The notes beneath the pieces were generated by a model, which did not search any database, was not told the origin of the DNA, and saw only the letters and a program-made list of their open reading frames with translations. Shown piece by piece: positions 17,464-63,860 of a stretch of 64,000 bases of DNA. Within the stretch, counting starts at the first letter, position 1. Each line of letters starts with the position of its first letter. The position numbers were made by a program, and so were the translations under genes. Location of the stretch: assembly GCF_018350175.1 (NCBI RefSeq), contig NC_058368.1, positions 18,044,001 through 18,108,000 of the forward strand, given 5' to 3'. The DNA comes from Felis catus (lineage: Eukaryota).

Positions 17464-17680
17464 GGGGCGCCTGGGTGGCTCAGTCGGTTGAGTGTCCGAC
17501 TTTGGCTCAGGTCATGATCTCATGGCTTGTGAGTTCGAGCCCCACGTCGGGCTCTGTGCTGATAGCTCAGAGCCTGGAGCCTGCTTCCGATTCTGTGTCT
17601 CCCTCTCTCTCTGCCCCTAACCCACTCGCTGTCTCTGTCTCTCTCAAAAATAAACATTAAAAAAAAATTAAAAAAAAAAG
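17464..17680 (+). mobile_element. SINEC
   Basis: ggggcgcctgggtggctcagtcgg; gaactaga repeated on both flanks. Confidence 0.9.
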
Positions 17681-18088: not shown

Positions 18089-18297
18089 TGGGGTGCCTGG
18101 GTGGCTCAGTCAGTTAAGTGTCTGACTTCAGCTCAGGTCATGATGTCACTGCTCGTGAGCTCCATGTTGGGCTCTGTGTTGACAACTCAGAGCCTGGAGC
18201 CCACTTTGGATTCTGTGTCTCCCTCCCTTTCTGCCTCTCCCCTACTCGTGCTCTGCCTCTCTCTCTCAAAAATAAATAAACATTAAAACAAACAAAC
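18089..18297 (+). mobile_element. SINEC
   Basis: Head and tail present; degenerate TSD aaaatagt.ttg.aagt. Confidence 0.9.
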
Positions 18298-19319: not shown

Positions 19320-20185
19320 AATAGCACACATGGAACATTTTCTAGGATAGAAATAAGGTAGGCTACAAAAGAAATCTTAGCAAATTCAGAGACTTAAACT
19401 ATATCAGCTATCTTCCCTGACCACAATGATATGAAACTGAAATCAGTAACGAGGAAAACTGGAAAATTTAACATGGAAATTGAACAACACACTCCTGATC
19501 AACCAAGGGATCAAAGAAGAAATTAAAAGGGAAATAAAAAAGTTTCTTGAGACAAATGAAAATGGAAATACTATATACCAGAAGTAATGGGATACAGCAA
19601 AACCAGTTCTAAGAGGGAAGTTCATAGCAATAAACACTTACGTTAAGAAGCAAGCGAAAGCCCAAGTAACCTTCCTGTACACCTTGGGGAACGATAGAAA
19701 GAACAAACTGAGCCCAAAGTTAACAGAAGGAAAGAGATAATAAAGGTTAGAGCAGAAGTAGATGAAATACAGAACAGGAAAACAATTGGAAGGATTAACT
19801 AAACTAAGAGTTGGTTCTTTGTAAAGATGAACAAAATTGACAAACTATTAGCTAGACTCACCAAGCAAAATAGAAGACCCAAATCAAAACTATAAACAAA
19901 AAAGGAGACATTTCAACTGATTTTTTGGAAGAGTTTGAGAAAGACTGATGTGAATTCTTTAAATGCTTGGTGAAATATAACAGTGAAGCCATCTAGTCCT
20001 GGGCTTTCTTTAAAATTTTTAAACTGATTTCATCTCCTTACTAGCAGTTGGTCTATTCAGATTTTCTGTTTCACCCTAATTCAGTTTTGGCAGGTTGCAT
20101 TCCTTCTAGGTTGTCCAATTTGTTGGTATATAGTTGTACATAGTACCTCTTATGATCCTTTGTGTATTTGTCATATCAGTTGTAG
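19320..20185. mobile_element. Second old L1 ORF2 fragment: plus 19320-19921, its continuation inverted 19922-20185
   Basis: gcacacatggaacattttctaggatag (EN end); reverse complement of 19922-20185 continues ORF2 from caactgat. Confidence 0.75.
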
Positions 20186-22635: not shown

Positions 22636-22815
22636 TGTGTATCTGTGCTGCAAAATACACAGTGCCATATCAATTTAAGCTAGACAGGCGTTGGCTAAAA
22701 TTCTTTTCACTATAGTGGTGTTATAATTCTAATTTAACATGTGTCATAAATGAAACCCAAATAAAATTAATAGTAGTCAGGGTTAATTTACTCAGTCCTC
22801 TGGAAAAACAAAACA

Positions 22816-22885
22816 AAACTAAACTAAACTAAACTAAACTAAACTAAACTAAACTAAACTAAACTAAACTAAACTAAACTAAACT
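22816..22885. repeat. (AAACT)14 perfect pentanucleotide microsatellite
   Basis: Direct read. Confidence 0.95.
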
Positions 22886-23810
22886 AAATGGTCCTTTAAA
22901 TAAATTGTGACTTCAATTCTAGTATTTAGTTTGTGTTTGGAATCTTCTTTTACTGTTCGAAATGTAGTAAATGGACCAGAAGCTTAGCCGTCACTTCTGA
23001 GCTTCTTAGACGTTCAAAAATCTTAGGCTTGCCTAGACCTACTGAATCCGAATATGCATTTGAAGGTTCCCTGATCATCCGTACGCATGTTAAAGTTTGA
23101 GAAGTGCTGTCCTACATGAAGAGTTTGAGTTTTACATTATTCCTTACAGATTGTTCTGCCAGGAAAAACAGAAACAGTATTCTCAGCTAAAATGCTTTTT
23201 AAATTTTAAATAAAATTGTGTTAAATAAAAAGTTGTAATTATTTGAAGTTATCTCAAACAAATGTTAGTTTGCATTTTAAGATTTATCTTGGGTATTTTT
23301 ATCGACTTAAGAACTTTAATTCCATAAGTAAATATGTAGGACAAGAGGGAATTTTTGGAGGTGATGGATATGTTTTATGGCATCGAATTTGGTGATGGTT
23401 TCATGGGTGTATGTGTATCTCCAAACTCACCAAATTATATACGTTAAGTAAGTACACCTGTTTGTTATGTCAATCATACCTCTCAACAAAGTGGTTTTAA
23501 AAAACACCTTAGTTCTATGTATTGTCAGTTGCTAGAACATATATGCATGCAGATAGAGCAAAAGGAGTCTATATATAAAATGAAGAAGTCAGTTTAAAAA
23601 TAGGAGGGTTGTTTTTTTTTTGGTTGGTTTTTTTATTTTTGAAAGTAGATGGGTGAGTGGCCTTCTAAGAAGCTACAGAACAGAAAATTAGAGGACTTTA
23701 AATGGAAGATATTTGAAAAATAAAACTAAAGTTGACAGTGGAATAAAGGCTTAACAGTTTTTGTAATTTGTATGGTGCAGCCTTTTCATTTTCTTTGAAA
23801 AAAAATCAGA

Positions 23811-25950: not shown

Positions 25951-26382
25951 ACACTTAACCATTAGAAATCCATTTCACTTGGATGAAATTAAGTTGCAGT
26001 GATAGGAGGATGTTAATTAGATACTTTTCTACTTTAGAGTTTCTTTCCATTATTTTTACTACATTATTATAAAATTATAGATTTTATTTATCTGACATCT
26101 GCCACAGTTTTCATTTGCTTTTGAAGCATAATTCTGACCCAGGGCTAATCTGGTATGTGTAAAAGCACTTCATAGAAGGTCCGTTTGTTAAATGAAGTGA
26201 GTTCAAGTAGTACTTGTATCATTTGTCATTGGCTCTAACTAAGGCATGAGTTTTGTTTGAATTTTGCAGCTTTTACAGACCTTAATTCAAGGGGATCAAA
26301 AAAGGTTCTCTTCAGCTATCTCCTATTGGTGCATGAAATTTCTGTCACTAGCCTTCTGTATGGCGATTGAAAATGAAATTTT

Positions 26383-28068
26383 TATTTCCCTGATGAGGAG
26401 TGACGTTGAGCATCTTTTCATGTGCTTGTTGGCCATCTGGATGTCTTCTTTAGAGAAGTGTCTATTCATGTTTTCTGCCCATTTCGTCACTGGATTATTT
26501 GTTTTTCGGGTGTGGAGCTTGGTGAGTTCTTTATAGATTTTGGATACTAGCCCTTTGTCCAATATGTCGTTTGCAAATATCTTTTCCCATTCCGTCAGTT
26601 GCCTTTTAGTTTTGTTGATTGTTTCCTTTGCAGTGCAGAAGCTTTTTATCTTCATGAGGTCCCAATAGTTCTTTTTTGCTTTTAATTCCCTTTCCTTTGG
26701 AGATGTGTCAAGTAAAAAATTGCTGCGGCTGAGGTCAGAGAGGTTTTTCCCTGCTTTCCTCTCTAGGGTTTTGATGGTTTCCTGTCTCACGTTCAGGTCC
26801 TTCATCCATTTTTAGTTTATTTTTGTGAATGGTGTAAGAAAGTGGTCTGTTTTCATTCTTCTTCATGTTGCTTTCCAGTTCTCCCAGCACCATTTGTTAA
26901 AGAGACTGTCTTTTTTCCATTGGATATTCTTTCCTGCTTTGTCAAAGATTAGTTGGCCATACTTCTGTGGGTCCAATCCTGGAGTCTCTATTCCATTGGT
27001 CTAAGTGTCTGTTTTTGTGCCAATATCATGCTGTCTTGATTATTACAGCTTTGTAGTAGAGGCTAAAATCTGGGATTGTGAAGCCTCCTGCTTTGGTCTT
27101 CTTCAAAATTACTTTGGCTATTCGGGGTCTTATGTGGTTCCATACAAATTTTAGGATTGCTTGTTCTAGCTTCGAGAAGAATGATGGTGCAACTTTGATT
27201 GGGATTGCATTGAATGTGTAGATAGCTTTGGGTAGTATTGACATTTTAACAATATTTATTCTTCCAATCCATGTGCACGGAATGTTTTTCCATTTCTCTA
27301 TATCTTCTTCAATTTCCTTTATAAGCTTTCTATAGTTGTCAGCATACAGATCTTTTGCATCTTTGGTTAGGTTTATTCCTAGGTGTTTTATGATTCTTGG
27401 TGCAGTTGTGAATGGGATCAATTTCTTTATTTGTCTTTCTGTTGCTTCATTATTAGTGTACAAATCAAAACCACACAGAGATACCACCTCACACCAGTCA
27501 GAGTGGCTAAAATGAACAAATCAGGAGACTATAGATGTTGGAGAGGATGCGGAGAAACAGGAACCCTCTTGCACTGTTGGTGGGAATGCAAACTGGCACA
27601 GCTGCTCTGGAAGCAGTGTGGGGGTTCTCCCCAAAATTAAAGATAGATCTACCCTATGATCCAGCAGTAGCACTGCTAGGAATTTACCCAAGGGATACAG
27701 GAGTGATGATGCATAGGGGCACATGTACTCCAATGTTTATAGCAGCACTTTCAATAATAGCCACATTATGGAAAGAGCCTAAATGTCCATCAACTGATGA
27801 ATGGATAAAGAAATTGTGGTTTATATGCACAATGGAATACTACTTGGCAATGAGAAAGAATGAAATATGGCCTTTTGTAACAACGTGGATGGAACTGGAG
27901 AGTGTTATGCTAAGTGAAATAAATCATACAGAGAAAGACAGATAACATGTTTTCACTCTTATGTGGATCCTGAGAAACTTAACGGAAGACCCTAGGGGAG
28001 GGGAAGGAGGAAAAAAAAAAAGAGAGGGAGGGAGCCAAACCATAAGAGACTCTTAAAAACTGAAAACA
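26383..28068. mobile_element. Young L1 with 5' inversion (twin priming): minus segment 26383-27460, plus segment 27459-28068; 3' end missing
   Basis: ORFs 26323..26805(-), 27026..27487(-) and 27535..27945(+) are ORF2 pieces; both segments break at consensus ...cagggaaata|caaatcaaaacc. Confidence 0.92.
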
Positions 28069-39989: not shown

Positions 39990-40069
39990 GTTCAGTTTGA
40001 TCGTTACCTGTCAGCCCCAGACAGCCTGTTAATGCCACAGCTGAACTTTCTCCTAAGTGCCACAGTGAA
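39990..40069 (+). CDS. COG6: COG6 exon 18, 80 nt, VQFDRYLSAPDSLLMPQLNFLLSATV(K)
   Basis: catttag| acceptor, GAA|gtaagt donor; phase 2 out matches the last exon. Confidence 0.95.
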
Positions 40070-40823
40070 GTAAGTGTGTTTCTGTCTCAACTAGTTGGTT
40101 AAGATTCACATATTTTTCAAAACAGCAAGCACATTTCTTAGAAAAAAATTTCTTTTCAAGAATAGGACATTGACGTTCTCCTAGATTGAAGAATATAGAT
40201 TGAAGATTTAGGGTTACCCGCCTTTTTTCACGGCTCAGCCACCCTAAGAGATCTGACCCGACCCTGCTCATACTTACTGCTTACATGTAGGTGGCTCCAA
40301 AATCTCTACTTAGTGAATGATTCTTAAAATTGATGTGACTATAATGGAAGCATATAGCCATAATACCAAACTAATAAACATGTCAGAATGACATTGAAAA
40401 TGTCGTGGAAGCTCAGTAGTATATTAATTGTGCTGTGCAGACGAGCTGCTGTACAGACTGTTTGGATCTGTTAGGTATATTTTGTAATTTTTCAGTATCA
40501 CCTATTTACCAGGAATGTGTTCAAGACAAAGAACTATACAGTAATATCTCAGAATGTTACGGTTAGAAGAAACAGAGGGATCATATTGTCTGACCTTCCT
40601 GATTATAAGGAAAATATTGACAAATTTAAGTTGCGTGGAAGTAGGAAATTAGACAATTTTAGACATTTTTTTTTTCCTTTCCATTCGCCCTGCTGTGTAT
40701 TAAATGCTTTCTGTGTAACAGGCACTAAGGATTAAGATTTGAAGGACATTTGCACTGTCTTCAGGGAGATCATAGTCTGTTGGGTCAGTTAGACGTGTGA
40801 ACAAATATTTATTTTATTTTAAT

Positions 40824-41041
40824 ATTTTTTAAATGTTTATTATTTTTGAGAGAGAGAGGGAGAGAGAAGAGAGAGAATGAGCAGGGGAGGGGCAGAGAGA
40901 GAAGGGGACACAGACTCCGAAGCAGGCTCCAGGCTCTGGGCTGTCAGCACAGAGCCTGATGGCAGGGCACGAGCTCACGAACTGTGAGATCATGACCTGA
41001 GCTGGTCCAGCCCTTAACTGACTGAGCCACCCAGGTGCCCC
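40824..41041 (-). mobile_element. SINEC
   Basis: ...gagccacccaggtgcccc. Confidence 0.9.
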
Positions 41042-41579
41042 ACAAATACTTATATGAAAAGGTGCGGTAAGGAAAGAACTATTGAACTTGAAGAAAATAC
41101 TCCAGTTACCAGAAGGGGAGCCGTGGGGCAGAGACGGCACACTTGTTTCCTATTGTCCTGGAGGGCACGTCCGCAGCAGTCAATAGAGCAAGGAGGTGGC
41201 TTCTGACTCAACACGCAGGAAAATTTGAATTAGACTGGCCAACTAGAATTGACTGGCAAGGGGATGGATCAGTTTTTCTCAGACATAAAGTTGGGAAATT
41301 TGATCATTTTAGGTGTAGTTAATGATTTTAATTTTTTTTTTTACTTTTATATTTTATCATCCTAAAAGATCTCATACTGTCTACTTACCTGGAATTCTAA
41401 AGACCTGAGAGATTGTAAAAGAAAATCCATTATGCCGTGTCTCAGATTGTTTGTGTGTGTTTCTTAAATTATTTTTCTTAACCGAATACCTGTAGTTCTT
41501 TAGATTTAACCACGTTTCAATCTTAGTATTTGAATGTTGCGCCGTCTGGGATGTCACTAAATATAAAACATACTGTGAT

Positions 41580-41585
<6 letters not shown>

Positions 41586-41624
<39 letters not shown>

Positions 41625-41830
41625 TTTCAACGTTTATTTATTTTTAGGACAGAGAGAGACAGAGCATGAACGGGGGAGGGGCAGAGAGAGAGGGAGACAC
41701 AGAATGGGAAACAGGCTCCAGGCTCTGAGCCATCAGCCCAGAGCCTGACGTGGGGCTCGAACTCACGGACCGCGAGATCGTGACCTGGCTGAAGTCGGAC
41801 GCTTAACCGACTGCGCCACCCAGGCGCCCC
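41586..41830 (-). mobile_element. Very young SINEC_Fc with TSD AAACATACTGTGATTCTTTT (41566-41585 / 41831-41850)
   Basis: CpGs intact, uninterrupted T run of about 30 nt, perfect TSD. Confidence 0.96.
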
Positions 41831-42462
41831 AAACATACTGTGATTCTTTTCATAATATGCTGAATGACGGGAAGTTTTAACGTGTTTTATAAAGGATGGC
41901 AGGTAGAGCAGATGCCATAAAGGGGAAATTGGAACAGATTTGGCTACATAACACTTTAAAGTTTTTGTCTTGTTTTTGTTTTTACAGAAAACAACAATAT
42001 AAACCAAGTTAAAATAAAAACCATAATGTGGAGCAATATTTTCAATTTATGTAACAAAGTATCCTTAATATATTATCCTTAATAGCAAACAAAATACCAC
42101 AAATCAGGACAAAACAGTAGAAAAACAGACACTGTGTGTTTGGACAGTTCACAGAAGAAATGCAAATGGCAAATAAATAGAACATAATAATTATCAAAAA
42201 ATGCAAATTAAAACAGCAGTGAGAATATCTGTCCATCAGATTGCTGACAATAAGGCGTTTGTTATATGCTAATTGAAAGGGTCTGGGAAAATGGGTATTT
42301 TCATATGTGAGAGTATAAATTAGTACAATCTTTTTAGAGGGCAATTTGACAACTTCCATCAAAACTTTAAAAGTTTATGTCCCTAGACTCAGGGATACCT
42401 CCTAACAGACTCCCCCCCACCCATTCCTAAGCTTTAATAAGAGTTAAAAGTAAAGTTACAGA

Positions 42463-42644
42463 GGGGCGTCTGGGTGGCTTAGTTGGTTAAGTGTCCAGCT
42501 TCAGGTCAGGTCATGATCTCACTGTTCGTGAGTTCAAGCCCTGCGTTGGGCTTGGTGCTGACGGCTCAGAGCCTGGAGGCTACTTCAGATTCCGCGTCTC
42601 CCTCCCTCTCTGCCCCTCCCTCCCTCTCTCTCCCTCTCTCTCCC

Positions 42645-42732
<88 letters not shown>

Positions 42733-42740
42733 GAATAAAT
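42463..42740 (+). mobile_element. SINEC with expanded (CT)n/(CTGT)n
   Basis: ggggcgtctgggtggcttagttgg head. Confidence 0.9.
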
Positions 42741-43831
42741 TTAGCCAGGAAACAAAGTTGTATAGAAAGTGGAGAAAAGAGAATGAAAATAATTTTAAGG
42801 AATTCTTCCTTCTTTTCTTCCTTGGGATGAATTAGAGATGTTCTTTTTTCAGTGTCAAACTCCAATATTCACCTTTCAGTGATACAAATATTAGACATTG
42901 GAATACAGAAGATACAGTTAAACATATATATATATATATACATATATATATATGTATATATATATGCATATGTAAAATATTCTCAGTGTCTTTTCTTGAT
43001 GATTCAGAATTATTTCTGAATGTTATTATATCAGATGTGATTTGAGAACTCTTATTCAGGAATCTTCCTTGATTTGACATACTAAAAAAATAATGTAATA
43101 ATGTAAAAAACAATGCCTTTATAGGAAATATTTCCTCTTTACTTAAAGAGGTATACAGAATAATTTTTTTCTTCTTTACCTCCTTTTAAGCCACCTGTAT
43201 TAACTATCAGGAATACCTGTTCTCAATAAAAATAAAGTAAGTTTTGGGGGAAAATAGTTCCACCAGGAAAAGAACAGCTACTGGAAACCTGTAAGCTGAA
43301 ACATAACTGGAGCTTGCACAATGCTTTAGAGACTCGAGAAAGCCCAAGCCTTCAAAGAGAGGTTAATCTAGTCCTACATAAAGCCTACCTTATACTCAGA
43401 AAAGCTTAAAAACAAAGTATGAAGTATCATGCTGATTTTTAACTAAACCAACTGCCTTCCTGAACAAAGCTTAGCACTCCTAAGGATGACAATAAATACA
43501 GTCAACCGTATAGCATGTGTAATGCAATATTACTTAGAAGAAGTAGTAGGAAAATATGAACCAAAACTAGGAAAAAATCTGTCAATAGAAACAGACAAAT
43601 GACAGTTTATAAAACTAGCAGTTAAGTTCCTTATAAGCAGCTAGTTACAGTGTGTTCAAGGACTTAAAGGAAAACATTATTATACTGAGAGAAGAAATAG
43701 GGAATTTTAGAGCTGAGAATTCTAGACCTGAAAAGTGTAACATCTAAAGTGAAAAATTGACTGACTGGGTTTAACTCTCAGTTGGACACCCCAGAGAGAA
43801 AGATCAGTCAACTTGAAAAGAGTACAGTAGA

Positions 43832-44762
43832 GGGGGGAAGCGGCAAGATGGCGGCTTAGGAGGACGCTGGGCTCACCGCGCGTCCTGCTGATCACTTAGA
43901 TTCCACCTACACCTGCCTAAATAACCCAGAAAACCGCCAGAGGATTAGCAGAACGGAGTCGCCGGAGCCAAACGCAGACGAGAGGCCCACGGAAGAGGGT
44001 AGGAAGGGCGGCGTGGCGGTGCGCGCTCCACGGACTGGCGGGAGGGAGCCGGGGCGGAGGGGCGGCTCGCCGGCCAAGCAGAGCCCCCGAGTCTGGCTGG
44101 CAAAAGCGGAGGGGCCTGACGGACTGTGTTCCCACAACAAGCGCGACTTAGCGTCTGGGAGGTCATAAGTTAACAGCTCTGCTCGGAAAGCGGGAAGGCT
44201 GGAGGACAAAGGGAGGGAGAGCTGCTGAGCCCCCTGACGACAGAGCTCAGCTTGGTGGGGAACAAAGGCGCTCGCCAGCGCCATCTCCCCCGCCCATCCC
44301 CCAGCCAAAATCCCAAAGAGAACCAGTTCCTGCCAGGGAACTTGCTCGCTCCGCGCAAACACCCAACTCTGTGCTTCTGCGGAGCCAAACCTCTGGCAGC
44401 GGATCTGACTCCCTCCCGCTGCCACAGGGCCCCTCCTGAAGAGGATCACCTAAGGAGAAGCGATCTAAGCCTGCCCCTCCTACCCCCGTGCACCTTGCCT
44501 ACCCACCCCAGCTAATACGCCAGATCCCCAGCATCACAAGCCTGGCAGTGTGCAAGTAGCCCAGACGGGCCACACCACCCCACAGTGAATCCCGCCCCTA
44601 GGAGAGGGGAAGAGAAGGCACACACCAGTCTGACTGTGGCCCCAGCGGTGGGCTGGGGGCAGACATCAGGTCTGACTGCGGCCCCGCCCACCAACTCCAG
44701 TTATACACCACAACACAGGGGAAGTGCCCTGCAGGTCCTCACCACGCCAGGGACTATCCAAA
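43832..44762 (+). promoter_or_regulatory. L1 5'UTR internal promoter, CpG-rich, YY1-type motif CAAGATGGCGG at 43844-43854
   Basis: Only clearly CpG-dense stretch in the window; YY1 core near the 5' end, as known for L1 promoters. Confidence 0.8.
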
Positions 44763-45656
44763 ATGACCAAGCGGAAGAATTCCCCTCAGAAGAATCTCCA
44801 GGAAATAACAACAGCTAATGAACTGATCAAAAAGGATTTAAATAATTTAACAGAAAGTGAATTTAGAATAATAGTCATAAAATTAATCGCTGGGCTTGAA
44901 AACAGTATACAGGACAGCAGAGAATCTCTTGCTACAGAGATCAAGGGACTAAGGAACAGTCACGAGGAGCTGAAAAACGCTTTAAACGAAATGCATAACA
45001 AAATGGAAACCACCACAGCTCGGCTTGAAGAGGCAGAGGAGAGAATAGGTGAACTAGAGGATAAAGTTATGGAAAAAGAGGAAGCTGAGAAAAAGAGAGA
45101 TAAAAAAATCCAGGAGTATGAGGGGAAAATTAGAGAACTAAGTGATACACTAAAAAGAAATAATATACGCATAATTGGTATCCCAGAGGAGGAAGAGAGA
45201 GGGAAAGGTGCTGAAGGGGTACTTGAAGAAATAATAGCTGAGAACTTCCCTGAACTGGGGAAGGAAAAAGGCATTGAAATCCAAGAGGCACAGAGAACTC
45301 CCTTCAGACGTAACTTGAATCGATCTTCTGCACGACATATCATAGTGAAACTGGCAAAATACAAGGATAAAGAGAAAATTCTGAAAGCAGCAAGGGGTAA
45401 ACGTGCCCTCACATATAAAGGGAGACCTATAAGACTCGTGACTGATCTCTCTTTTGAAACTTGGCAGGCCAGAAAGAATTGGCAGGAGATTTTCAGGGTG
45501 CTAGACAGAAAAAATATGCAGCCGAGAATCCTTTACCCAGCAAGTCTGTCATTTAGAATAGAAGGAGAGATAAAGGTTTTCCCAAACAAACAAAAACTGA
45601 AGGAATTTGTCACCACTAAACCAGCCCTACAAGAGATCCTAAGGGGGACCCTGTGA
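44763..45656 (+). CDS. L1 ORF1p, 297 aa from ATG 44763 (coiled coil, RRM, CTD)
   Basis: MTKRKNSP start; heptad-rich region; [22 protein letters not shown] motifs; the track ORF starts at an upstream GTG. Confidence 0.96.
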
Positions 45657-45706
45657 GACAAAGTCCCAGAGACATCACTACAAGCATAAATCATACAGAC
45701 ATCACA

Positions 45707-48700
45707 ATGACTCTCAACCCGTATCTTTCTATAATAACACTGAATGTAAATGGATTAAATGCACCAACCAAAAGACATAGGGTATCAGAATGGATAAAAA
45801 AACAAGACCCATCTATTTGCTGTCTACAAGAGACTCATTTTAGACCTGAGGATACCTTTAGATTGAGAGTGAGGGGATGGAGAACTATTTATCATGCGAC
45901 TGGAAGCCAAAAGAAAGCTGGAGTAGCCATACTTACATCAGACAAACTAGACTTTAAATTAAAGGCTGTAACAAGAGATGAAGAAGGACATTATATAATA
46001 GTTACAGGGTCTATCCATCAGGAAGAGCTAACAATTATAAATGTCTATGCGCCGAATACCGGAGCCCCCAAATATATAAAACAATTACTCATAAACATAA
46101 GCAATCTTATTGATAAGAATGTGGTAATTGCAGGGGACTTTAACACCCCACTTACAGAAATGGACAGATCATCTAGACACACGATCAATAAAGAAACAAG
46201 GGCCCTGAATGAGACATTGGATCAGATGGACTTGACAGATATATTTAGAACGCTGCATCCCAAAGCAACAGAATATACTTTCTTCTCGAGTGCACATGGA
46301 ACATTCTCCAAGATAGATCACATACTGGGTCACAAAACAGCCCTTCATAAGTTTACAAGAATTGAAATTATACCATGCATACTTTCAGACCACAATGCTA
46401 TGAAGCTTGAAATCAACCACAGGAAAAAGTCTGGAAAACCTCCAAAGGCATGGAGGTTAAAGAACACCCTACTAACGAATGAGTGGGTCAACCAGGCAAT
46501 TAGAGAAGAAATTAAAAAATATATGGAAACAAACGAAAATGAAAATACAACAATCCAAACGCTTTGGGACGCAGCGAAGGCAGTCCTGAGAGGAAAATAC
46601 ATTGCAATCCAGGCCTATCTCAAGAAACAAGAAAAATCCCAAATACAAAATCTAACAGCACACCTAAAGGAACTAGAAGCAGAACAGCAAAGGCAGCCTA
46701 AACCCAGCAGAAGAAGAGAAATAATAAAGATCAGAGCAGAAATAAACAATATAGAATCTAAAAAAACTGTAGAGCAGATCAACGAAACCAAGAGTTGGTT
46801 TTTTGAAAAAATAAACAAAATTGACAAACCTCTAGCCAGGCTTCTCAAAAAGAAAAGAGAAATGACCCAAATAGATAAAATCATGAATGAAAATGGAATT
46901 ATTACAACCAATCCCTCAGAGATACAAACAATTATCAGGGAATACTATGAAAAATTATATGCCAACAAACTGGACAACCTGGAAGAAATGGACAAATTCC
47001 TGAACACCCACACTCTTCCAAAACTCAATCAGGAGGAAATAGAAAGCTTGAACAGACCCATAACCAGTGAAGAAATTGAATCGGTTATCAAAAATCTCCC
47101 AACAAATAAGAGTCCAGGACCAGATGGCTTCCCAGGGGAGTTCTACCAGACGTTTAAAGCAGAGATAATACCTATCCTTCTCAAGCTATTCCAAGAAATA
47201 GAAAGGGAAGGAAAACTTCCAGACTCATTCTATGAAGCCAGTATTACTTTGATTCCTAAACCTGACAGAGACCCAGTAAAAAAAGAGAACTACAGGCCAA
47301 TATCCCTGATGAATATGGATGCAAAAATTCTCAATAAGATACTAGCAAATCGAATTCAACGGCATATAAAAAGAATTCTTCACCATGATCAAGTGGGATT
47401 CATTCCTGGGATGCAGGGCTGGTTCAACATTCGCAAATCAATCAACGTGATACATCACATTAACAAAAAAAAAGAGAAGAACCATATGATCCTGTCAATC
47501 GATGCAGAAAAGGCCTTTGACAAAATCCAGCACCCTTTCTTAATAAAAACCCTTGAGAAAGTCGGGATAGAAGGAACATACTTAAAGATCATAAAAGCCA
47601 TCTATGAAAAGCCCACAGCTAACATCATCCTCAACGGGGAAAAACTGAGAGCTTTTTCCCTGAGATCAGGAACACGACAAGGATGCCCACTCTCACCGCT
47701 GCTGTTTAACATAGTGCTGGAAGTTCTAGCATCAGCAATCAGACAACAAAAGGAAATCAAAGGCATCAAAATTGGCAAAGACGAAGTCAAGCTTTCGCTT
47801 TTTGCAGATGACATGATATTATACATGGAAAATCCGATAGACTCCACCAAAAGTCTACTAGAACTGATACAGGAATTCAGCAAAGTTGCAGGATACAAAA
47901 TCAATGTACAGAAATCAGTTGCATTCTTATACACTAACAATGAAGCAACAGAAAGACAAATAAAGAAACTGATCCCATTCACAATTGCACCAAGAAGCAT
48001 AAAATACCTAGGAATAAATCTAACCAAAGATGTAAAGGATCTGTATGCTGAAAACTATAGAAAGCTTATGAAGGAAATTGAAGAAGATTTAAAGAAATGG
48101 AAAGACATTCCCTGCTCATGGATTGGAAAAATAAATATTGTCAAAATGTCAATACTACCCAAAGCTATCTACACATTCAATGCAATCCCAATCAAAATTG
48201 CACCAGCATTCTTCTCGAAACTAGAACAAGCAATCCTAAAATTCATATGGAACCACAAAAGGCCCCGAATAGCCAAAGGAATTTTGAAGAAGAAGACCAA
48301 AGCAGGAGGCATCACAATCCCAGACTTTAGCCTCTACTACAAAGCTGTCATCATCAAGACAGCATGGTATTGGCACAGAAACAGACACATAGACCAATGG
48401 AATAGAATAGAAACCCCAGAACTAGACCCACAAACGTATGGCCAACTCATCTTTGACAAAGCAGGAAAGAACATCCAATGGAAAAAAGACAGCCTCTTTA
48501 ACAAATGGTGCTGGGAGAACTGGACAGCAACATGCAGAAGGTTGAAACTAGACCACTTTCTCACACCATTCACAAAAATAAACTCAAAATGGATAAAGGA
48601 CCTAAATGTGAGACAGGAAACCATCAAAACCTTAGAGGAGAAAGCAGGAAAAGACCTCTCTGACCTCAGCCGTAGCAATCTCTTACTCGACACATCCCCA

Positions 48701-49531
48701 AAGGCAAGGGAATTAAAAGCAAAAGTGAATTACTGGGACCTTATGAAGATAAAAAGCTTCTGCACAGCAAAGGAAACAACCAACAAAACTAAAAGGCAAC
48801 CAACGGAATGGGAAAAGATATTTGCAAATGACATATCGGACAAAGGGCTAGTATCCAAAATCTATAAAGAGCTCACCAAACTCCACACCCGAAAAACAAA
48901 TAACCCAGTGAAGAAATGGGCAGAAAACATGAATAGACACTTCTCTAAAGAAGACATCCGGATGGCCAACAGGCACATGAAAAGATGTTCAGCGTCGCTC
49001 CTTATCAGGGAAATACAAATCAAAACCACACTCAGGTATCACCTCACGCCAGTCAGAGTGGCCAAAATGAACAAATCAGGAGACTCTAGATGCTGGAGAG
49101 GATGTGGAGAAACGGGAACCCTCTTGCACTGTTGGTGGGAATGCAAATTGGTGCAGCCGCTCTGGAAAGCAGTGTGGAGGTTCCTCAGAAAATTAAAAAT
49201 AGACCTACCCTATGACCCAGCAATAGCACTGCTAGGAATTTATCCAAGGGATACAGGAGTACTGATGCATAGGGCCACTTGTACCCCAATGTTCATAGCA
49301 GCACTCTCAACAATAGCCAAATTATGGAAAGAGCCTAAATGTCCATCAACTGATGAATGGATAAAGAAATTGTGGTTTATATACACAATGGAATATTACG
49401 TGGCAATGAGAAAAAATGAAATATGGCCTTTTGTAGCAACGTGGATGGAACTGGAGAGTGTGATGCTAAGTGAAATAAGCCATACAGAGAAAGACAGATA
49501 CCATATGGTTTCACTCTTATGTGGACCCTGA
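45707..49531 (+). CDS. L1 ORF2p, 1274 aa from ATG 45707 (APE-like endonuclease, reverse transcriptase, Cys-rich C-terminus)
   Basis: [25 protein letters not shown] (EN); [12 protein letters not shown] (RT); CWRGC...HCWWEC; no stops or frameshifts. Confidence 0.98.
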
Positions 49532-52308
49532 GAATTTAACAGGAACCCATGGGGGAGGGGAAGGAAAAAAAAAAAAAAAACAGGTTAGAGTGGGAGAGAG
49601 CCAAAGTATAAGAGACTCTTAAAAACTGAGAACAAACTGAGGGTTGATGGGGGGTGGGAGGGAGGAGAGGGTGGGTGATGGGTATTGAGGAGGGCACCTT
49701 TTGGGATGAGCACTGGGTGTTGTATGGAAACTAATTTGTCAATAAATTTCATATTAAAAAAAAAAAAAAAGAAAAGAGTACAGTAGAAACGATCCAAACT
49801 GAAGCAGTGATAGAAAACATTAAAAGGCTAGAAAAAGATGAAGAGAGCCTTAGTGAATTGTGGCATAATATTAAGCAAACTCAAGTAGGTATAATAACTG
49901 GAGTGTCATAATGAGAATGAGTCAGAAAAAATTTGAAGAAATGAAACAAGTTTTTCCAAATGTGATGGAAAACATGAGCCCACAACCCAAGAAGCTAAAT
50001 AACTCAGCAGAGAAAACCATACCAGAGTATACGTACCATCATCTTATCATTGAAAACCAGGGATAAAGAGAAAAATCTTGAAAGCAGCCAGAGGGAAAAA
50101 GACATATTGTGTATAGGATTCGAATGATGGTTAAGTATACTACTGACTTCTTATTAGAAACAGTGCAAACGAGAAGGCAATAGAATATCATCTTTAAATG
50201 TCTACTTTGTGTGTTCATCACATGTATCTTTCAAACTCAACGCACAAAAAATACATTTTGTGATAAATAAAAGTAGACTAGTATGCTGCACTGTAGAAAA
50301 TGATAAAGGAAGTCTGTCAGGCTCAAGGAAAAGAATACCAGAAGAAAACTCAGATCAACACAGGAATAATGAGTACAGTAAATGCTAAATATAAAAGGTA
50401 GTGGACCATTTAAAACAAAAATACTAACAGTGAATTGTGGAATTTTTAACACATAGAAATGAAATTTATAAGAAATGCACAAAAGATGGAGTGGGAAGGA
50501 AGTAGAAATACATATTTATGATGTTACAAGGTTATTATATAATATAATAATATTTTTTGAAGGTAGATTGTGAACCTTGCAGCCAGCTCTCAAATGAACA
50601 AAATTATCTAACATTCCAATAGTCAAGATAAAATAGAATGCTAAAAAAGCAATTATATCAAAACAAGGCAGAAAAAGAAGGGAAAAGAATAGAAGGGGAA
50701 AATCTAAAAAAAAAAAAAGCAGGATGATAGACTTAAATTCAGCCTTATAAATAATTATATTAAATGTAAAAGAACTGTTACTTCAGTTAAAAGGCAGATT
50801 AGATTCTTAGATGAAAAAGCATGGCCCACTGTCTGCTGTCTATAAGAAATACACTTTAACAGTAAGGATACAGATAGTTTAAAAGTAAAATCGTAACAAA
50901 GCTAAAGAAGTTGTATTAGTATCAGAAAAATTAGACTGCAAGACAGATACCAAAGATAAGGAGGTACGTTTTACAATAATAATAGAATCAATTCGTGAAG
51001 AGGATATAATTGTCAGTGTGTGCATCTAATAGCAGAGCTTCAAAAAATAAGCAGTATAAGTTCATAGAATTGAGGAAGAATAGATACACTGACAATTGTA
51101 GGTAGGTATTTCAACACCCCTCTCAGTAATTGTTAGAAAAAGTAACCAAAAATCTGACATGGTGTAAAGGAACTGAACAATGCCAGCAATCAAACCTAAT
51201 ACATATAGAATACCACACACATTTATAGAAGGTAACATTCTTTTCAAGTGCCTATAAAACATTCACCAAGCTAATGTAAGAATGAGCAAAAAAGAAATGG
51301 GTATAATCCACTAGTGAATATTTTTATCTATAAACATGGTATGCCTGTTTATTCAGATATTTTAGAATTTTCAATAAAGTTTTATAATTTCCTCATATAG
51401 TCTTCTGTCTATATTATCGGGTTTCTTCCTAGGAAATAATTCTGTGACTATTATGATAAGATCTTTTATTTTCTGTTACCTGTTCTAATTAGGTATTGCT
51501 GGTGTATATCAAATGTACTAAATTTCATATGATCATTTTGAATCTGGCCAAGTAACTAAACTATTTTAGTTCTATTAACTTATCAGTTGTTTAGTTTTTG
51601 GTGAAGACAGCTAAGGATAATGAGTTTTATTAATTTTTTTTCAGTATTTATGACTAAAATCATTGTATCAGTTAAGAACTGCAAGGTAAATAGTAGATGT
51701 AATAGTGAGTGTGCATATTTTACTTTGAATTTTAATGAAAATGTTTCGGATGTTTCATCATTAAGTGTGAGTTTTGCTGTGGATTTTCAGCGTTCCAACA
51801 GTCATATGGTATTCTTTTCCAACTGGTTATGTGATATAGTTAATCTAATAAATTCAGTATAACTTCAGTCATAATTCTCAAAGAACCACTTTATTAAATG
51901 TTTATCTAGAAAAAAGTATGTGAGAGGAGACTCTAGTTACTTTTGAACATCTTCACAGTTCACCACTCTGGTCCAAGGTAGTGTCACTTGTGCCTATATT
52001 ACCACGTTAGCTTCTGAACTATTCTGTTTTCACCCTTGCCCCACCCCAACTCCTACAGTGTAATCAATCTGAACACCTCAACCAGATTGATTCTTTAACT
52101 TCACTTAATCCTCCCATGAATTAGGATTTCCTCTTTCCAGTGGCGACATCACTTAGAAAGTTTAAATAATTGAACCAAGGGCAAACAGAAGCAAGCAGAG
52201 CCAAGATTTGAATCCACTATTTCTGATTCCAATGCCTATTCTCTTTAACACTAGCCTGTACTGTATTTTTATTAGTCCTTTCTATGTTGAGATTATATTA
52301 TTATTTTT

Positions 52309-52512
52309 TAAGTGTATTTATTTTTGACAGAGACAGAGTGTGAGCATGAGCTGGGGAGGGGCAGGGAGAGAGAGGGAGACACAGAATCCGAAGCAGGCTC
52401 TAGGCTCCAAGCTGTCAGCACAGAGCCTGATGTGGGGCTCGAACCCACGAACTGTGAGATCGTGACCTGGGCTGAAGTGAGACGCTTAACCGACTGAGCC
52501 ACACAGGGGCCC
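52309..52512 (-). mobile_element. SINEC with TSD TGAGATTATATTATTATTTTT (52288-52308 / 52513-52533)
   Basis: Direct flanking repeat. Confidence 0.92.
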
Positions 52513-54600
52513 TGAGATTATATTATTATTTTTAAAGGAAGCTCAAAAATATTTGCATATGTGATAGGTTAACACTTATATGAGATATGTGGGTTTGGTC
52601 TTATGTAAAATGTACTTTAATTTTACAGTCAGTGACAGAAAGCTGACCTGGGATAAAAATCAACTTGATCCATTGTGACATCATTGGTTTTGGTATTATG
52701 ATAAAAGAAAAATCAAAATTCTTTCATTTATGATCCCTAAATACATTATCATCTTTTCTTTTTCGTTTTCCAAGACTTAAGCTGTTAATACCTTCTCTCC
52801 CGTGATGCATTTGATTGCACTCTTAACTGTGGTTCTGTAATAAAGCTCAATTTTAGTGATCACAGAGCCTGACTGTTGAAATAGCTATTTTTAGAAATGC
52901 TGGGTTTATGGTAATGATGAAAGTTGTGTCATGTTGTTATGGCAACCAAAAATCCTAAAGTACTGATTAATGACAAGCTCACTGATTCTGGAAGTATGCA
53001 GTTCATTTCTTATCATGGCTAAAGGCTTTAAATAATTATTTTAAATGTTTTGTGAATCTGTTTTAAAATGGGTGGCATCTCCATTTAATTATATATTAGT
53101 CTTTATTAGTACTTCTGACATTTATAATAAATTGTTTGGCATTGTAACATTTATAACTGGACACATTGAATTTCTTAATGCATGGTATTCTGATGCCTAA
53201 GAAAAATACTGCTTTTCCCTCCAGTTTTATAATATCCTCATCTCCTTCCATTTTTTTTCCCAGTAGTTAACTGCATGGTTATTATCTTTGATGTATACAC
53301 TGGTATAGCAAACTACTTTCTAAATGTAAGAAAGATTTTTCAAAACTTGGAAATAGGGCAGATCAGGTCTGGGAGAGCAACGTGTCCTTTCAGGGTCACA
53401 CTGAAGCATTGTTACCAGGCCCTTCGAGAATTATTTAATTATTTAGGGGCATGTATCATAGTTTGATGCTCGGCTTACTGTTGATAATTAAAGGCCCCGT
53501 GCTTCTTCATGTCCTATGTATTTTTTTGCTCTGGGGGACATGAACCCATGTTTTATTCTAACCTTCCTTTTCAAATGCCTATAAATGACCAGTTCCTCAG
53601 AATGTTCTGTGAACCAGCTTTACCATCTCAGTAGTTCCTCATTAAGGAGTTATTAAGTCATTGGCATTCTTTCATTTTTTATCTGTGTGAGTCATGTTTT
53701 TAATTATTTGAAAGTTATAATTGCACTGTGAGGATTATTAAACTGTCCAAAGGCCAATAGGACACCACCTGATAAGTGGCCACCTATGAGATTTTCATGG
53801 TGGTAAAGAGACCAAGGCAGTTAACGGTCTAACTTTATAGACGGTCATAGCCTGCATCCAAATATTTCTTTTTTCCCTTTCAACTGGCCCTTTTGCTTAT
53901 GTGAAAAGCAGGACTCGTCTTCAGATTTTTAACCTGTAGAAATAATTCTAAAGGTACTCTCCATTCACCACCTATGGTCTTGGCTGTGACTGATCAGAAT
54001 TCAGTGTGGCAGGCGATCTGAGGTGAATGCCCGTGCTCGCGCCAGTGCTCAGCATACACTACTGAAAACACATACTGCTTTTCTTCCTTCTTGTACGTGA
54101 GGCGATCAACAGATGAGCACGTTCCGAGTTTTCAGAAGCGTATGACTGAGATGATTTGTCAGTGATTTTGTATTTAGTTAGAGAATACCTGAAACTTCCA
54201 TTTTAAACGTTATTTGTCACTGTAATGATTCATCATTATTTGAGACTGTGTATTTTATAAATGATATTAGTGAATAATTTGGACCAAGACACCAGGCAGG
54301 CAAACAGATAGATATATACACAGATATACATATATACTTTTTAAGATAAAAGATACATAATAATTGCATAGTAATTAGCACTATAAATAAAGAGGAGGGG
54401 ATAGTAAAATGGCAAGACGGTAAACCCATGTTAGCACCTCAGATACCTCCCATTTTATGTACAGATAACTGATATGCTTATTATACATCAGTATTTAAGA
54501 AACCCAATTCCCCAAAATAACGTGGGGGGAGGAATGTATGTATGTATGCATATGTACGTATGTGTATAAATTAGATAGGCACATAGAGTTTTTATTTTTT

Positions 54601-54800
54601 GTTATTTTTTGTACATATTTATTGAGAGAGAGAGAGAACAAACACGAGTGGGGAAGGGGCAAAGAGAGAGGAGAGAATCCAAAGCAGGCTCCACACTCAG
54701 TGCAGAGCCCGATGCGGGGCTCGATTTCCCAAGCGTGAAATCATGACCTGAGCCAAAACGAAGAGCCAGACACTCGACCAGCTGAGCCACCCAGGCACCC
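54601..54800 (-). mobile_element. SINEC with TSD GAGTTTTTATTTTTT (54586-54600 / 54801-54815)
   Basis: Direct flanking repeat. Confidence 0.92.
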
Positions 54801-55837
54801 GAGTTTTTATTTTTTCACCAGCAGATCATTAAAATGCTCTTAATCCTCAATGGGATAATTTAAAAACTGAAAGTACCTTGTAAGTATCAAGTTCAATATT
54901 TTGCCTTACAGTGGTGAAATTAGTCCCAGAAAGGCTAAATTTCTTGTTCAAAGCAACAGTAATAAGTGGCAGAGCTTCGACTAGATTCAAGGTCTTCTGA
55001 CAATAATGTCCATCACTGTACTGTTTTCTCTCTACTGAGTATGATTCACTGGAAACAAAGCATTGAGTGTGAGTGTATGACTCTATATCCGGCTTTGGTA
55101 GTGATAGTGAACTCTTACATTTGTCCAGGAATGGGGAGTCGTTATCAGTCACAGTTCCCCGCTCTTTACAGTTTGGATTTGACTCAGATTCGCTCTGGAG
55201 AATCTCTCTTTCCATTGCATTTCTCTCCTATTGGCTAACAGTTCTTTCCCCTTCCCTTTATTCACCCCACTGCATGAAAGATTTCCTTTCTCCATGAGCT
55301 TTGGTATCTCTTATCTTGTTTAGCACAGCCGTATTCATTTTTTTAATCCCTTCCCTATCTTGGTAGCTTCCTAAACTGAGGAGCGGAATGAGAAACTGTA
55401 TTATACTATCAAACACCAACATTGAAAATAAATGATAAACTCTGGCTTGGTCTTATTGTCTTGATTTTATTTATTTGTGTCTTAGCAGTATTGCTTTATT
55501 CTGGTTTTCTCCATTGCAGATTTGTAATGATTTTTCTGCTGCATTGTGAGTTGTAGACATTTGTAAGCTAGTTTAGCTTATAAATAGAAGCATGCCCTGG
55601 GTTACAGCTAAACTTCAATAAATTTAAATTTTTTCATCCTTTGGACTTGAGATTAAAATTTAAAATGTATTACTTTATATTTTTCAACAACTCATTCTAC
55701 ATTTACCAGTTACTCTGGATTTTAAAAAATTATATTTAATATTCATTGTGCTGTATTCTGATTTTAAATTTCTTACGAGAGGGAATAGCCTTGTTTCTTT
55801 GTATTCTTTATGTGGTACAAATAACACACTATGTACA

Positions 55838-55918
55838 GACTGAGTATAGATTTTAGAGTATGAGGTATAAGTAATGGGGACTGAGTATAGATTTTAGAAT
55901 ATGAGGTGTAAGTAATGG
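55838..55918. repeat. 41-bp tandem duplication, two copies, two internal mismatches
   Basis: gactgagtatagattttaga(g/a)tatgaggt(a/g)taagtaatgg starting at 55838 and 55879. Confidence 0.92.
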
Positions 55919-56063
55919 ATGCTTTATACACCCCCCAAAAATCTGTCTTGCTGCTTTGAGTAAAGAACAAAAAACACTATATCAGTAATCTATTTTTGAC
56001 ATGTTGCAAAATGGGCATCAAATGTGTATCATATTTAACAAATTTTTTAAATGCCAGTTGATA

Positions 56064-56270
56064 GGTACGTCTGGGTGGCTCAGTCAGTTAAGCGTCTGAC
56101 TTCACTCAGGTCATGATCTCACAGTTAGTGAGTTCAAGCCTTGCGTCAGGCCCTGTGCTGACAGCTCGGAGCCTGGAGCCTGCTTTGGATTCTGTGTCTC
56201 CCTCTCTCTCTGCCCCTCCCCAACTCGTGCTCTGTGTCTCTCTCTCAAAAATAAATAAATGTTAAAAAAA
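56064..56270 (+). mobile_element. SINEC
   Basis: Flanked by aaatgccag on both sides. Confidence 0.9.
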
Positions 56271-57185
56271 AATGCCAGGTTATAGTATTTTTAATCTATT
56301 TCATTTATGGAAAATAGTTTTGCATCATATCTATGCAATTGTTAAGTTCAGTTAATTATAGGAATGATCACTAAGATCAAAAATATCTGGAAGGCTCATC
56401 TGGTCAAGTAGATTTCCAAACCAGTTTTTACCATCCTCCCTTCCAATGAAAAGGTAGCATAGCCAGAAGCATCACTCCACTCTGCTCAGAGAATTTACTC
56501 CGCGTAACTTTCTTCTACCCACTCTTATTATGTAAGCTTTAGCAATTTTAGGGAAATGACAAGTTGTTTCACCCCACCAAGAGTCTGAGACCCCATCGGA
56601 ACAGGGTGCTGATGATCCAGACCTCAGGATTAGAGTTGTGCTACGGAAGGTATTCTAAAGGGTTTTAAATGGCCGAGTGAGGGATTTTGACTTCTCTGGC
56701 ACCAGAAGAAGCCATTGACGCTCCTTGAAGGAAGGCCCCGGGTGGGGGAGGGACAGGATAGAAGGTACGCTTGAGAAAGATTAATCTGGCAGTAGTGCTT
56801 ACCGTAGATTGAAGGTGGAAGAGACTCAAGAGGGGAAGACCAGATAGGAGTTTTTTCTGTACTCCGTACAAGAGTTCATTAGGGTCTGAATGGAGGTGAC
56901 GAAACGTGGCCGTGCCACTGACAGAAAGAAGAAACAACTAGAAAAGAAGGTTTGGGAGTAAAGCTTGAAAGACATCTTTAAATTGAGTTGTGAAAATCAG
57001 AAAAAAAGTCCTGTTTTTATCACTAGATACAGTGATACAGGAATAGAAGTAGCTGAGGCTGGTATGAAGTAAATGTCGTGAAAACGCAGAGAGAGCTGAT
57101 GCAGATTTAATGAACCCAGTGCTGTTTTTTTCTGGCCAGATTTTTAAAAAATTTGCTTCAGTTCATTTACATCCTTTTATTCTTT

Positions 57186-57402
57186 GAGGCACCTGGGTGG
57201 CTCAGTCAGTTGAGTGTCTAACTTTGGCTCAGGTCATAGACTTGAGGTTGGTGAGTTCAAGCCCCGTGTCGGGCTCTGTGCTGACAGCTCGGAGCCTGGA
57301 GCCTGCTTCGGATTCTGTGTCTCCCTCTCTCTCTCCCTTCCCCTGCTTGCACTCTGTCTCTCTCTCTCTCTCAAAAATAGTAAACATTAAAAAAATAAAA
57401 AA
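57186..57402 (+). mobile_element. SINEC
   Basis: ggcacctgggtggctcagtc head. Confidence 0.9.
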
Positions 57403-57517
57403 ATGCTTTCTAATCCACTTGGAGTTAGTATATATTTACTGAAAGAGATTTTTTAAAAATTTATTTGGACATTTAAAGATCTATACGTTATTTTTATTAA
57501 AACAAATGTAAATAAAA

Positions 57518-57730
57518 GGGGTGCCTGGGTGGTTCAGTCAGTTAAGCATCTGACTTTGGCTCAGGCCATGATCTCATAGTCCGTGAGTTCAAGCCCCGCA
57601 TCAGGCCGTGGGCTGACAGCTCAGAGCCTGGAGCCTTCTTCCGATTCTGTGTCTCCCTCTCTCTCTGTTCCTCCCATGCTCGCACTCTGTCTCTTGTTCT
57701 CTCTCTCAAAACAAATAAGGATTAAAACAA
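57518..57730 (+). mobile_element. SINEC
   Basis: ggggtgcctgggtggttcagtc head. Confidence 0.9.
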
Positions 57731-57877
57731 ATTTTTTTTAAAGGTTTTATTCTTTTATATGCTTATGTAGAGATGACCTTTGTGGAAAATGCTGTTACCT
57801 ATTGTAGGCAAGTGTCACATTATTTTACCCGGCAATATAAGTGAAATCTAAAATGTGGTTACTAGTGTAGGAGCTAA

Positions 57878-57906
57878 ACAGTATATTTATAACAGTATAT
57901 ATAACA

Positions 57907-57958
<52 letters not shown>

Positions 57959-58027
57959 TATATACAGTGTATATATATACAGTATATATATATATACAGT
58001 ATATATATATGTGAAAGGACAGTATAT
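57878..58027. repeat. Compound (TA)n / ACAG(TA)n repeat
   Basis: Repeated acagtata units with variable (TA)n, the longest about 22 units. Confidence 0.9.
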
Positions 58028-58412
58028 TGTAAGTTATTCTGAGGTTTGAAGTATTGGCAAGTATGAATAATTATAAGCCTCTTTCTTCAAGGTTAATGTG
58101 TTATCAGTCACGTTTGCAAAATCAGCACATTGATGATAGGTCACAGTTTCCATTTCTTGTTTAGTAATCATAAAGATACAGCTGTGAACATAGTCCCTGC
58201 CCGTCTGCAACAATGAATAAATAACGAATATAAAATAGTGTGTTTTATTCCCAAACCAAAGTAAGTAACTTGTGTGGTTGTACAATAATTTCTTTGTAGT
58301 ATGTATGTGATAATTACGAAAGTGAAATGCATTGGTTCAAATATGAAGCTTCTTACTATCCTTAGTATTTTACTTTCCGGTGTGTGTTCACATATTGTTT
58401 GCTTATCACTAG

Positions 58413-58560
58413 AGAGCAGATCATAAAACAATCTACAGAATTAGTCTGCAGAGCCTATGGGGAAGTGTATGCCGCTGTGATGAATCCAGTCAACGAATAC
58501 AAAGATCCGGAGAGCATTCTACACCGATCGCCACAGCAAGTGCAGACACTTCTCTCCTGA
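58413..58560 (+). CDS. COG6: COG6 terminal coding exon 19, (K)[48 protein letters not shown]
   Basis: tatcactag| acceptor; TGA at 58558-58560; C-terminus recognised as COG6. Confidence 0.96.
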
Positions 58561-62199: not shown

Positions 62200-63860
62200 A
62201 GATGAACATACTGACTAGGTTACATTAATTAGCTAGTTAAGATGTAAAACTGTATTAAGGAATCCCAAAATTCTGACTCTCCGTAAAAGCAACAATAAAA
62301 CTGGCCCCCAAGAACCACCGAAAACAACTTTTTTTAGAACTCTAGAAACTAGCTCACAGCAAGTCAGGTTATACTTAAAAACAAAAGCTGAGTCTTGATA
62401 ACAGCATGCTTTGTGGAATTTTAAGCTAGCCCTGTGCCTTGTTCCCAAGCTTAGCAGTAGCCTTTTGCAAAGAATGTTTTTATTTTATCTGTCTCATGCC
62501 TACCCAGAAGATTCCTGTTCTAAAAGCTTATATTTATCTCATCTAACTTGGAACATTTCCAATGCTAAAGTCACCACCCCAGGATAGGGGGAGAGTTAGG
62601 GGGCGTACATTTCTCTTCTGCCTGAAGCAATAGGATGAACAATAGACTAAGCAAAAAGCTTAGGAAGGGAGGTTAGCAGTGAGATCTCCGTAAAGGCATG
62701 GAAAAACCCAGACATATCCTTGGAAATCTAGAAAGCTATGTATGTGTTGTTTAGGACTGCATGCCCAGAAAAGACCAGAGAGACCCTAAGCTGTCACCTC
62801 TGGTTGCATCTTGAAGGCATGCCCCAACACTCATCACAGCACACCCCAGTCAAGACTGGAAGGTTGTTTTGGTTCCAGACACGTAAGGAAATCTCTGTCC
62901 AGTTGTTAGCAGACTGCTAAGCTAATGGACCACTTTAAGTGGTCACACACAACAGAGCAATTGTCAACGTTACAGGATTCATTTAGCAAAATCACACACA
63001 ACAACAGCTACAAAAAGCACCGACCACAGCGAACTCTGAGGTGCAGGGCAGGAGAATCCAATTTCAGCAGAATGTGTGCATTGTAATGTTCCAAATGCCC
63101 ACTTTTCAAGAAAAATTGTTTACAAGATACCTAAAGGACAGCCAGAACACGGGGAGGGTGGGGGGGAGCACTCAGTAGAAACTATCTCTGAAGAAGCCCA
63201 GATGTTGGACTTAGTAGACAAAGACTTTAAATCGGCAATTTTAGATGTGTTCAGGGACTGAAGGAAGGTATGAGGACAATGCCTCCTCAAACAGAGACTA
63301 TCAATAAAGAGCTAGAAATTGGAAAAGATGTTTTCATAAAGTTATAAACTTATCAAAATTATAATTTAAACTCATAATTTTATAAAAAGTATAAATATCT
63401 CGTCTGGGGTTGAAAATTATAATTGAAATTTAAAAATCCACTATAGGAGTTGAACAGCTGTGAACAGTCAGTAAAAAGAATCAGCAAAGTTGAAGTTAGA
63501 TCAGTAGAGATTATGCAATCTGAGGAACAGAAAGAAAAAAGAATAGAAGAAAGTGAACAGGGCCTCAGAGACCTGTGAGATGTTATCAACAATATTCACA
63601 CAATGGGTGTCTTGGAAGGAAAAGAAAGGGGAAAGGGGACAAAAAAATATTTGGAAGAAATATTTTTTTCAGAAAGTGTACAAGTTTGTTGAAAATTTAA
63701 TAACACACATTTAAGAAGTTTACCAAGCCCAGATAAAGGTACACACTGAGACACATCACGATTAAATTATCAAAAGCCAAAAACTCAGAGGGGACTTTGA
63801 AAGCAAAAAGAAAGATAACTCATCATATACATGTGATTTACAATAAGATTATCACGATGC
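62200..63860 (+). mobile_element. Old L1 5'UTR/ORF1 fragment downstream of COG6
   Basis: gaagcccagatgttggacttagtagacaaagactttaaat; gaaaagtgaacagggcctcagagacctgtgaga. Confidence 0.75.

Follow-up and report, generated by a model that had tools for sequence, protein, structure and literature searches.

A young, intact LINE-1 of a well-known felid family in the last coding intron of cat COG6

An element of the LINE-1 (L1) family occupies positions 43832-49770 of the plus strand in a 64,000-nt stretch of the Felis catus genome (assembly GCF_018350175.1, contig NC_058368.1, positions 18,044,001 to 18,108,000 of the forward strand; this whole stretch is called the window below, and positions are counted from its first letter). 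It is 5,939 nt long, full length and of felid type, and by every sequence criterion it is a full-length intact L1 (FLI-L1) in the sense of L1Base. The element is real, young, intact and ordinary, and its family is well known. Very probably, it is a single young full-length copy of a felid L1 lineage that is currently amplifying, and was inserted by target-primed reverse transcription. An earlier note on this DNA, which was made without database searches, had already described an intact L1 in the last intron of the gene COG6; the present analysis adds the sense orientation of the element relative to COG6, the old L1 ORF1 that was its target, the tail of 15 A, and the private residues T77 and L558 of the ORF2 protein.

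Structure of the element and traces of its insertion

Four open reading frames (ORFs) of at least 150 amino acids that start with ATG are present in the window, and two of them, both open and both on the plus strand, belong to the element: ORF1 (44763-45656, 297 amino acids) and ORF2 (45707-49531, 1274 amino acids), separated by a spacer of 50 nt (45657-45706, +). The lengths and the openness of the two frames, as given by the earlier note, were thus reproduced. The ORF1 protein (ORF1p), composed of a coiled coil, an RRM and a C-terminal domain, matches PF02994 (E 1.5e-25) and PF17490 (E 3.6e-24) above the cut-off and human ORF1p structures with an E-value of 1.5e-59, and is 98% identical to a Felis catus protein. 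Residues 4-1273 of the ORF2 protein (ORF2p) align with residues 5-1274 of human ORF2p in a single colinear stretch (1,984 bits). From this alignment and from Pfam, ORF2p consists of an endonuclease (residues 10-229, 45734-46393, +; PF03372, E 1e-23), a reverse transcriptase (residues 516-772, 47252-48022, +; PF00078, E 1.6e-48) with the FADD motif at residues 699-702, and a C-terminal Cys-rich segment, C-x3-C-x7-H-x4-C (residues 1129-1146, 49091-49144, +).

The residues checked in these domains are the majority ones in an alignment of 237 homologs, obtained from 240 by exclusion of the felid-type rows P0177, P0308 and P0327. They are N13, E42, Y114, D144, N146, D204 and H229 of the endonuclease, D599, D701 and D702 of the reverse transcriptase, and the four Cys/His ligands, which bears out the previous reading of the endonuclease, FADD and Cys-rich motifs as intact. 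N13, E42, D144, D204, H229 and D701 correspond to human positions named as critical in 10.1101/721357. At 28 sites ORF2p departs from columns conserved to at least 90% among 120 homologs, a set rich in dog sequences; 26 of these departures, considered as signs of decay, were rejected as such, being the state of the felid family, and the other two are private to the element. As to the felid family itself, its endonuclease (45707-46393) carries replacements at columns of at least 90% conservation in the dog-heavy set at E48, R56, T65, T100, S132, V139 and F180, and in three of them a lysine has given way to an uncharged or acidic residue.

The element is bounded by two identical 17-bp copies of a target-site duplication (TSD; 43815-43831 and 49771-49787, both +), the perfect duplication already seen by the earlier reader. 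This word occurs nowhere else in the 64 kb and is the only one of at least 9 nt common to the two end regions compared; simple arithmetic gives a chance of the order of 1/100,000 or less for a 17-bp match between two end regions of 161 nt. The nick context at the left copy, TT/GAAAA, has one mismatch relative to the endonuclease consensus 3'-AA/TTTT-5' (PMC10760644). The 3' untranslated region (3'UTR; 49532-49755, +), with AATAAA at 49741, was delimited by alignment to the end of a truncated L1 copy at 14817-16006, and is followed by a poly(A) tail of 15 A (49756-49770, +), read directly from the sequence. Since the 3' end of the element coincides with that of the truncated copy, no 3' transduction was carried in by the element. 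All the scars expected from target-primed reverse transcription according to PMC10760644 are present, namely a poly(A) tail, a TSD shorter than 20 bp and a target of the endonuclease type.

At the other end, the 5'UTR (43832-44762, +; 931 nt) has a G-rich start, a GC content of 63% and 53 CpG, and its base composition is that of a CpG island with a putative internal promoter. The observed/expected CpG ratio is 0.57 for the whole 5'UTR and 0.75 for its first 500 nt, compared with 0.32 for the window, in agreement with the CpG retention claimed earlier. The same G-rich start is found in an independent felid L1 on a metagenome contig (L001), 92% identical to the element over 1,728 columns. Therefore the 5' end appears complete, as judged from this one comparison locus, and the element full length, as had been stated. 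Between the two sequences, 36 CpGs of the 5'UTR are common, 10 have decayed in L001 only and 4 in the element only. A pattern match at +14 to +23 (43845-43854, +), also present in L001, has a core that we take, with the earlier note, to be a YY1-type motif. L001 is the sole felid-type locus among the three related ones retrieved from 348 pattern matches in metagenome contigs; no contig among these 348 covers the insertion locus, and none of 48 matches in viral contigs was related. In the region of L001 around 227-260, 12 nt of the 5'UTR of the element are absent, which, together with the overall identity of 92%, suggests at least two 5'UTR variants among felid L1s. An antisense ATG frame of 125 amino acids in the 5'UTR (44284-43907, -) was considered as an ORF0-like gene and rejected: it is broken in L001, 209 of 2,000 Markov shuffles gave an equally long frame, and it is probably due to chance.

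The insertion probably proceeded in the following way. The RNA of some parent L1 would have been translated, and ORF2p, according to the model in PMC10760644, would have nicked the TT/GAAAA site inside an old L1 remnant. After priming on the poly(A), the whole RNA would have been copied by reverse transcription, and a staggered second nick would have given rise to the 17-bp duplication. Later on, the element most likely became a silenced passenger, spliced out together with the COG6 intron.

Relatives, age and activity

Among 16 felid-type sequences, the nearest relatives of ORF1p differ from it at 1 of 221 and 2 of 297 residues, and L29 alone is private to the element (I in all ten relatives). 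ORF2p was compared with 31 felid pieces, with thin coverage at the C-terminus and as few as two per column (an 80% identity filter removed none of them), and only two of its residues proved to be private: T77 of the endonuclease (codon 45935-45937, +), where 22 of 22 felid pieces have I, and L558 of the reverse transcriptase domain, where 10 of 10 have I. The Felis catus protein P0390 is 99.7% identical to ORF2p over 1,168 amino acids, with three differences, and has in common with it the minority states I160, Q722 and S1127, while the identity to P0395 is 98.7% over 1,274 amino acids. These two F. catus entries and P0001 (UniRef100_A0ABI7ZE45, A0ABI7WDS5 and A0ABI7W6C3, respectively) share with the element the 297-aa ORF1p and 1274-aa ORF2p at identities of 97.6-99.7%, and the element differs from them by its three private residues. 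The Repbase/Dfam name of the subfamily is presumably of the L1_Fc type. Neither of the two exact proteins was found in a collection of 15 billion proteins, and the look-alikes in other genomes came down to one unrelated human L1 with 6 of 180 words in common. The felid-type clusters comprise 234 members for ORF1p and 780 for ORF2p, many of them fragments. The rarity of intact full-length L1s, stated in the earlier note, holds as a fraction of all copies; as a count it does not, in view of these clusters and of the 146 intact copies in the human and 264 in the dog reference (PMC5210629).

Divergence was judged at the protein level, against the sampled felid L1 proteins. Three private residues among 1,571 correspond to 0.085%, and, at a rate of 2.2e-9 per site per year (PMC9290555) and an assumed non-synonymous share of 75%, to 0.39 million years (95% range 0.08-1.13). 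The insertion would thus be at most about 0.4 million years old (0.08-1.1), this being an upper bound because any change that an unsampled parent already carried, or that arose during reverse transcription, would make it younger. The recent date proposed for the insertion, for which a check of divergence had been suggested, is upheld by this estimate. From its age alone, the insertion is somewhat more likely than not to be still dimorphic among domestic cats. The remaining L1 pieces of the window are more diverged (93.7%, 91.3%, 88.6% identity and lower) and, by this measure, are older than the element.

Several points weigh against a young copy of an amplifying lineage: the age was derived from three amino-acid changes and a sample of 16 ORF1p and 31 ORF2p relatives, a tail of 15 A is short for a brand-new insertion, and T77 may impair the endonuclease. 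A stretch at the left junction was also looked up in a run index, which listed 20 holders: the set of 99 sampled words was complete in 4 of them and one word short in the other 16, a pattern compatible with a variable site. The holders come from 8 studies with one organism label, 14 of the 20 being flagged as possible sources of the DNA of the window; as the missing word is not assignable to the junction, this result was not used as evidence.

As to activity, the earlier wording 'probably retrotransposition-competent' is too strong, because open frames predict activity poorly and because the private I77T change affects a conserved column of the endonuclease: of 199 other L1 homologs, 193 have I or V there and one has T, and the human protein has V. 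From a haploid human genome 142 intact L1s were cloned, of which 29 proved active in culture, 5 of these at or above the level of L1RP (PMC10883270), and L1 proteins are reported to tolerate little change (10.1101/721357). That the element is intact but dead, its frames being open by youth alone and its activity abolished by T77, L558, L29 of ORF1p or an unseen promoter change, has therefore to be taken seriously, and we consider the arguments for and against it evenly balanced. The inactive majority of the intact human copies and the replacement of I/V by T at position 77 speak for it; however, T77 lies outside the catalytic residues, the change from I to T would retain a beta-branched side chain, I558L is conservative, and single substitutions are milder than trialanine blocks. 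In addition, the close relatives of the element raise its prospects of activity: of the intact human copies that have close relatives, activity was seen in 15 of 20 polymorphic and 3 of 8 frequent ones (PMC10883270). On these grounds measurable jumping in a reporter assay may be predicted with slightly less than even confidence.

It is unlikely that the element is an active 'hot' source, transcribed in the germline from its CpG-island promoter and giving rise to daughters, some of them with 3' transductions of the sequence from 49788 onward. Such a role would agree with the presence of all checked catalytic residues, the kept CpGs, the existence of close relatives and the activity of the human polymorphic copies just mentioned, as well as with the jumping of a cloned intact dog L1 in HeLa cells (10.1101/2020.07.31.231761). 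On the other hand, the share of active copies among intact human L1s is low, and the private residues T77, L558 and L29 of ORF1p occur in 0 of 22, 0 of 10 and 0 of 10 sampled relatives, respectively, so that in this small sample no daughter was seen.

The COG6 locus and possible effects of the insertion

The placement of the element in the last COG6 intron, made in the earlier note, is supported by the order of the exons. Five of eight candidate exons give Pfam COG6_C matches that follow one another in the proper order along the plus strand (profile positions 164-193, 234-273, 279-332, 335-367 and 417-462 of 462), an additional weak match is found at 991-1053, and the remaining three candidates have no Pfam match. 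One of these three is the penultimate coding exon (39990-40069, +), which has AG/GT ends and a phase-2 end in frame with the last exon, and whose residues, counted together with those of the exon at 36891, fill profile positions 368-416. The last coding exon (58413-58560, +), of 48 codons and a stop, accounts for the final match (417-462, E 3.3e-9). The intron between them (40070-58412) is 18,343 nt long, and the element lies in it in the sense orientation to the gene, the donor being 3.8 kb and the acceptor 8.6 kb away. The insertion hit a decayed L1 ORF1 that runs in the same direction as the element, the left part of this ORF1 (43534-43814, +) being recognized by weak tblastn pieces (E 0.075 and 0.30) and its right part (49788-50204, +) by a tblastn match to ORF1p residues 177-247 (E 1.6e-4).

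In such a position, a sense L1 could slow elongation or trigger early polyadenylation, so that the mRNA would end before the last exon and the insertion would constitute a regulatory allele of COG6. The element is on the COG6 strand and its sense strand has 16 poly(A) hexamers (10 AATAAA and 6 ATTAAA); read-through from the penultimate exon would, from the donor context, meet an in-frame stop one codon past the donor site. The product would therefore lack the last 48 residues, and its message could escape nonsense-mediated decay because no splice junction lies downstream. According to PMC3192792, sense full-length L1s interfere with transcription more strongly than those in antisense orientation, and introns contain half as many of them; the distance between the upstream exon and the start of the element falls within the 0-5.9 kb reported there. 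The intronic L1s with transcriptional interference of that study are like the element in their tandem orientation, internal poly(A) signals and distance of a few kb to the preceding exon. Nevertheless, both splice sites are distant, and about 1,000 sense full-length L1s are tolerated in human introns (PMC3192792); on the whole, a regulatory effect seems improbable.

More doubtful still is the combination of these possibilities, in which the insertion would be dimorphic among domestic cats, the element would have kept its mobility, and COG6 would be made hypomorphic by it, with transcripts ending in the last intron and the last 48 residues lost. If true, the element would be the first L1 of the cat to be proven functional, and at the same time a candidate allele behind a feline phenotype of Golgi trafficking or glycosylation; a human COG6 disease exists. 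Dimorphism by itself would provide, in a housekeeping gene, a natural experiment with a sense L1 in the last intron.

An assembly artefact, through collapse to a family consensus or misplacement of a repeat, is very improbable: L1s are difficult to assemble, and a 2016 cat assembly had 1 intact full-length copy, compared with 8,075 non-intact ones (PMC5210629, Table 1), but the exact TSD interrupts an older L1 remnant, the window contains no N, and a collapsed consensus is disfavoured because it would carry the majority states whereas the element has three states absent from all sampled relatives. The single intact cat copy in that table most likely reflects the assembly, because a later long-read cat assembly contains far more full-length L1 (PMC7581003); a bias of draft assemblies has been noted for the cat (PMC5203782).

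Comparison with known L1s and other repeats in the window

As an ordinary young felid L1, the element can be compared with dog L1_Cf (e.g., L1_Cf-104_5), likewise a carnivore L1 with two open ORFs; its ORF2p is 75% identical to a dingo protein. L1_Cf-104_5 is mobile in culture (10.1101/2020.07.31.231761; PMC13756887), and 1,410 dimorphic intact full-length L1 copies were reported across 12 canine samples (PMC13756887). No activity test of a cat L1 was found among the literature matches listed, subscription journals being mostly outside their coverage. With human L1Hs/L1RP the element shares its architecture, including the colinearity of ORF2p over 1,270 residues. In contrast to the human L1, it has a shorter ORF1p, the human ORF1p motifs REKG, ARR and YPAKLS are replaced in it, at the level of the family, by RGKR, ARK and YPASLS, and no conserved antisense ORF was found in its 5'UTR when the element and L001 were compared. 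This carnivore genome probably contains many intact young L1s, of which the element is one, and its significance is small as it stands; its practical value is that of a clone-ready candidate for functional testing of a cat L1.

The truncated copy used above for delimiting the 3' end (14817-16006, -) is a felid L1 that has lost its 5' part, is 93.7% identical to the element, contains an ATG frame of 320 amino acids (15034-15996) and is flanked by an apparent TSD, about 17 bp long; it lies among older L1 ORF2 remnants (14607-14709 and 16051-19884). Another L1 (26378-28068) has the shape expected from twin priming, with a 5' inversion: 26378-27463 is on the minus strand (91.3% identity) and 27459-28068 on the plus strand (88.6%). 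Directly at 28069, within the 3'UTR of this L1, begins a SINE-like sequence, which has the look of a CAN-SINE. Further old L1 ORF1 remnants are located at 63459-63811 and 13935-14012 (both +), and a near-perfect pentanucleotide array, (AAACT)16.6, occupies 22806-22888 in an intron of COG6.

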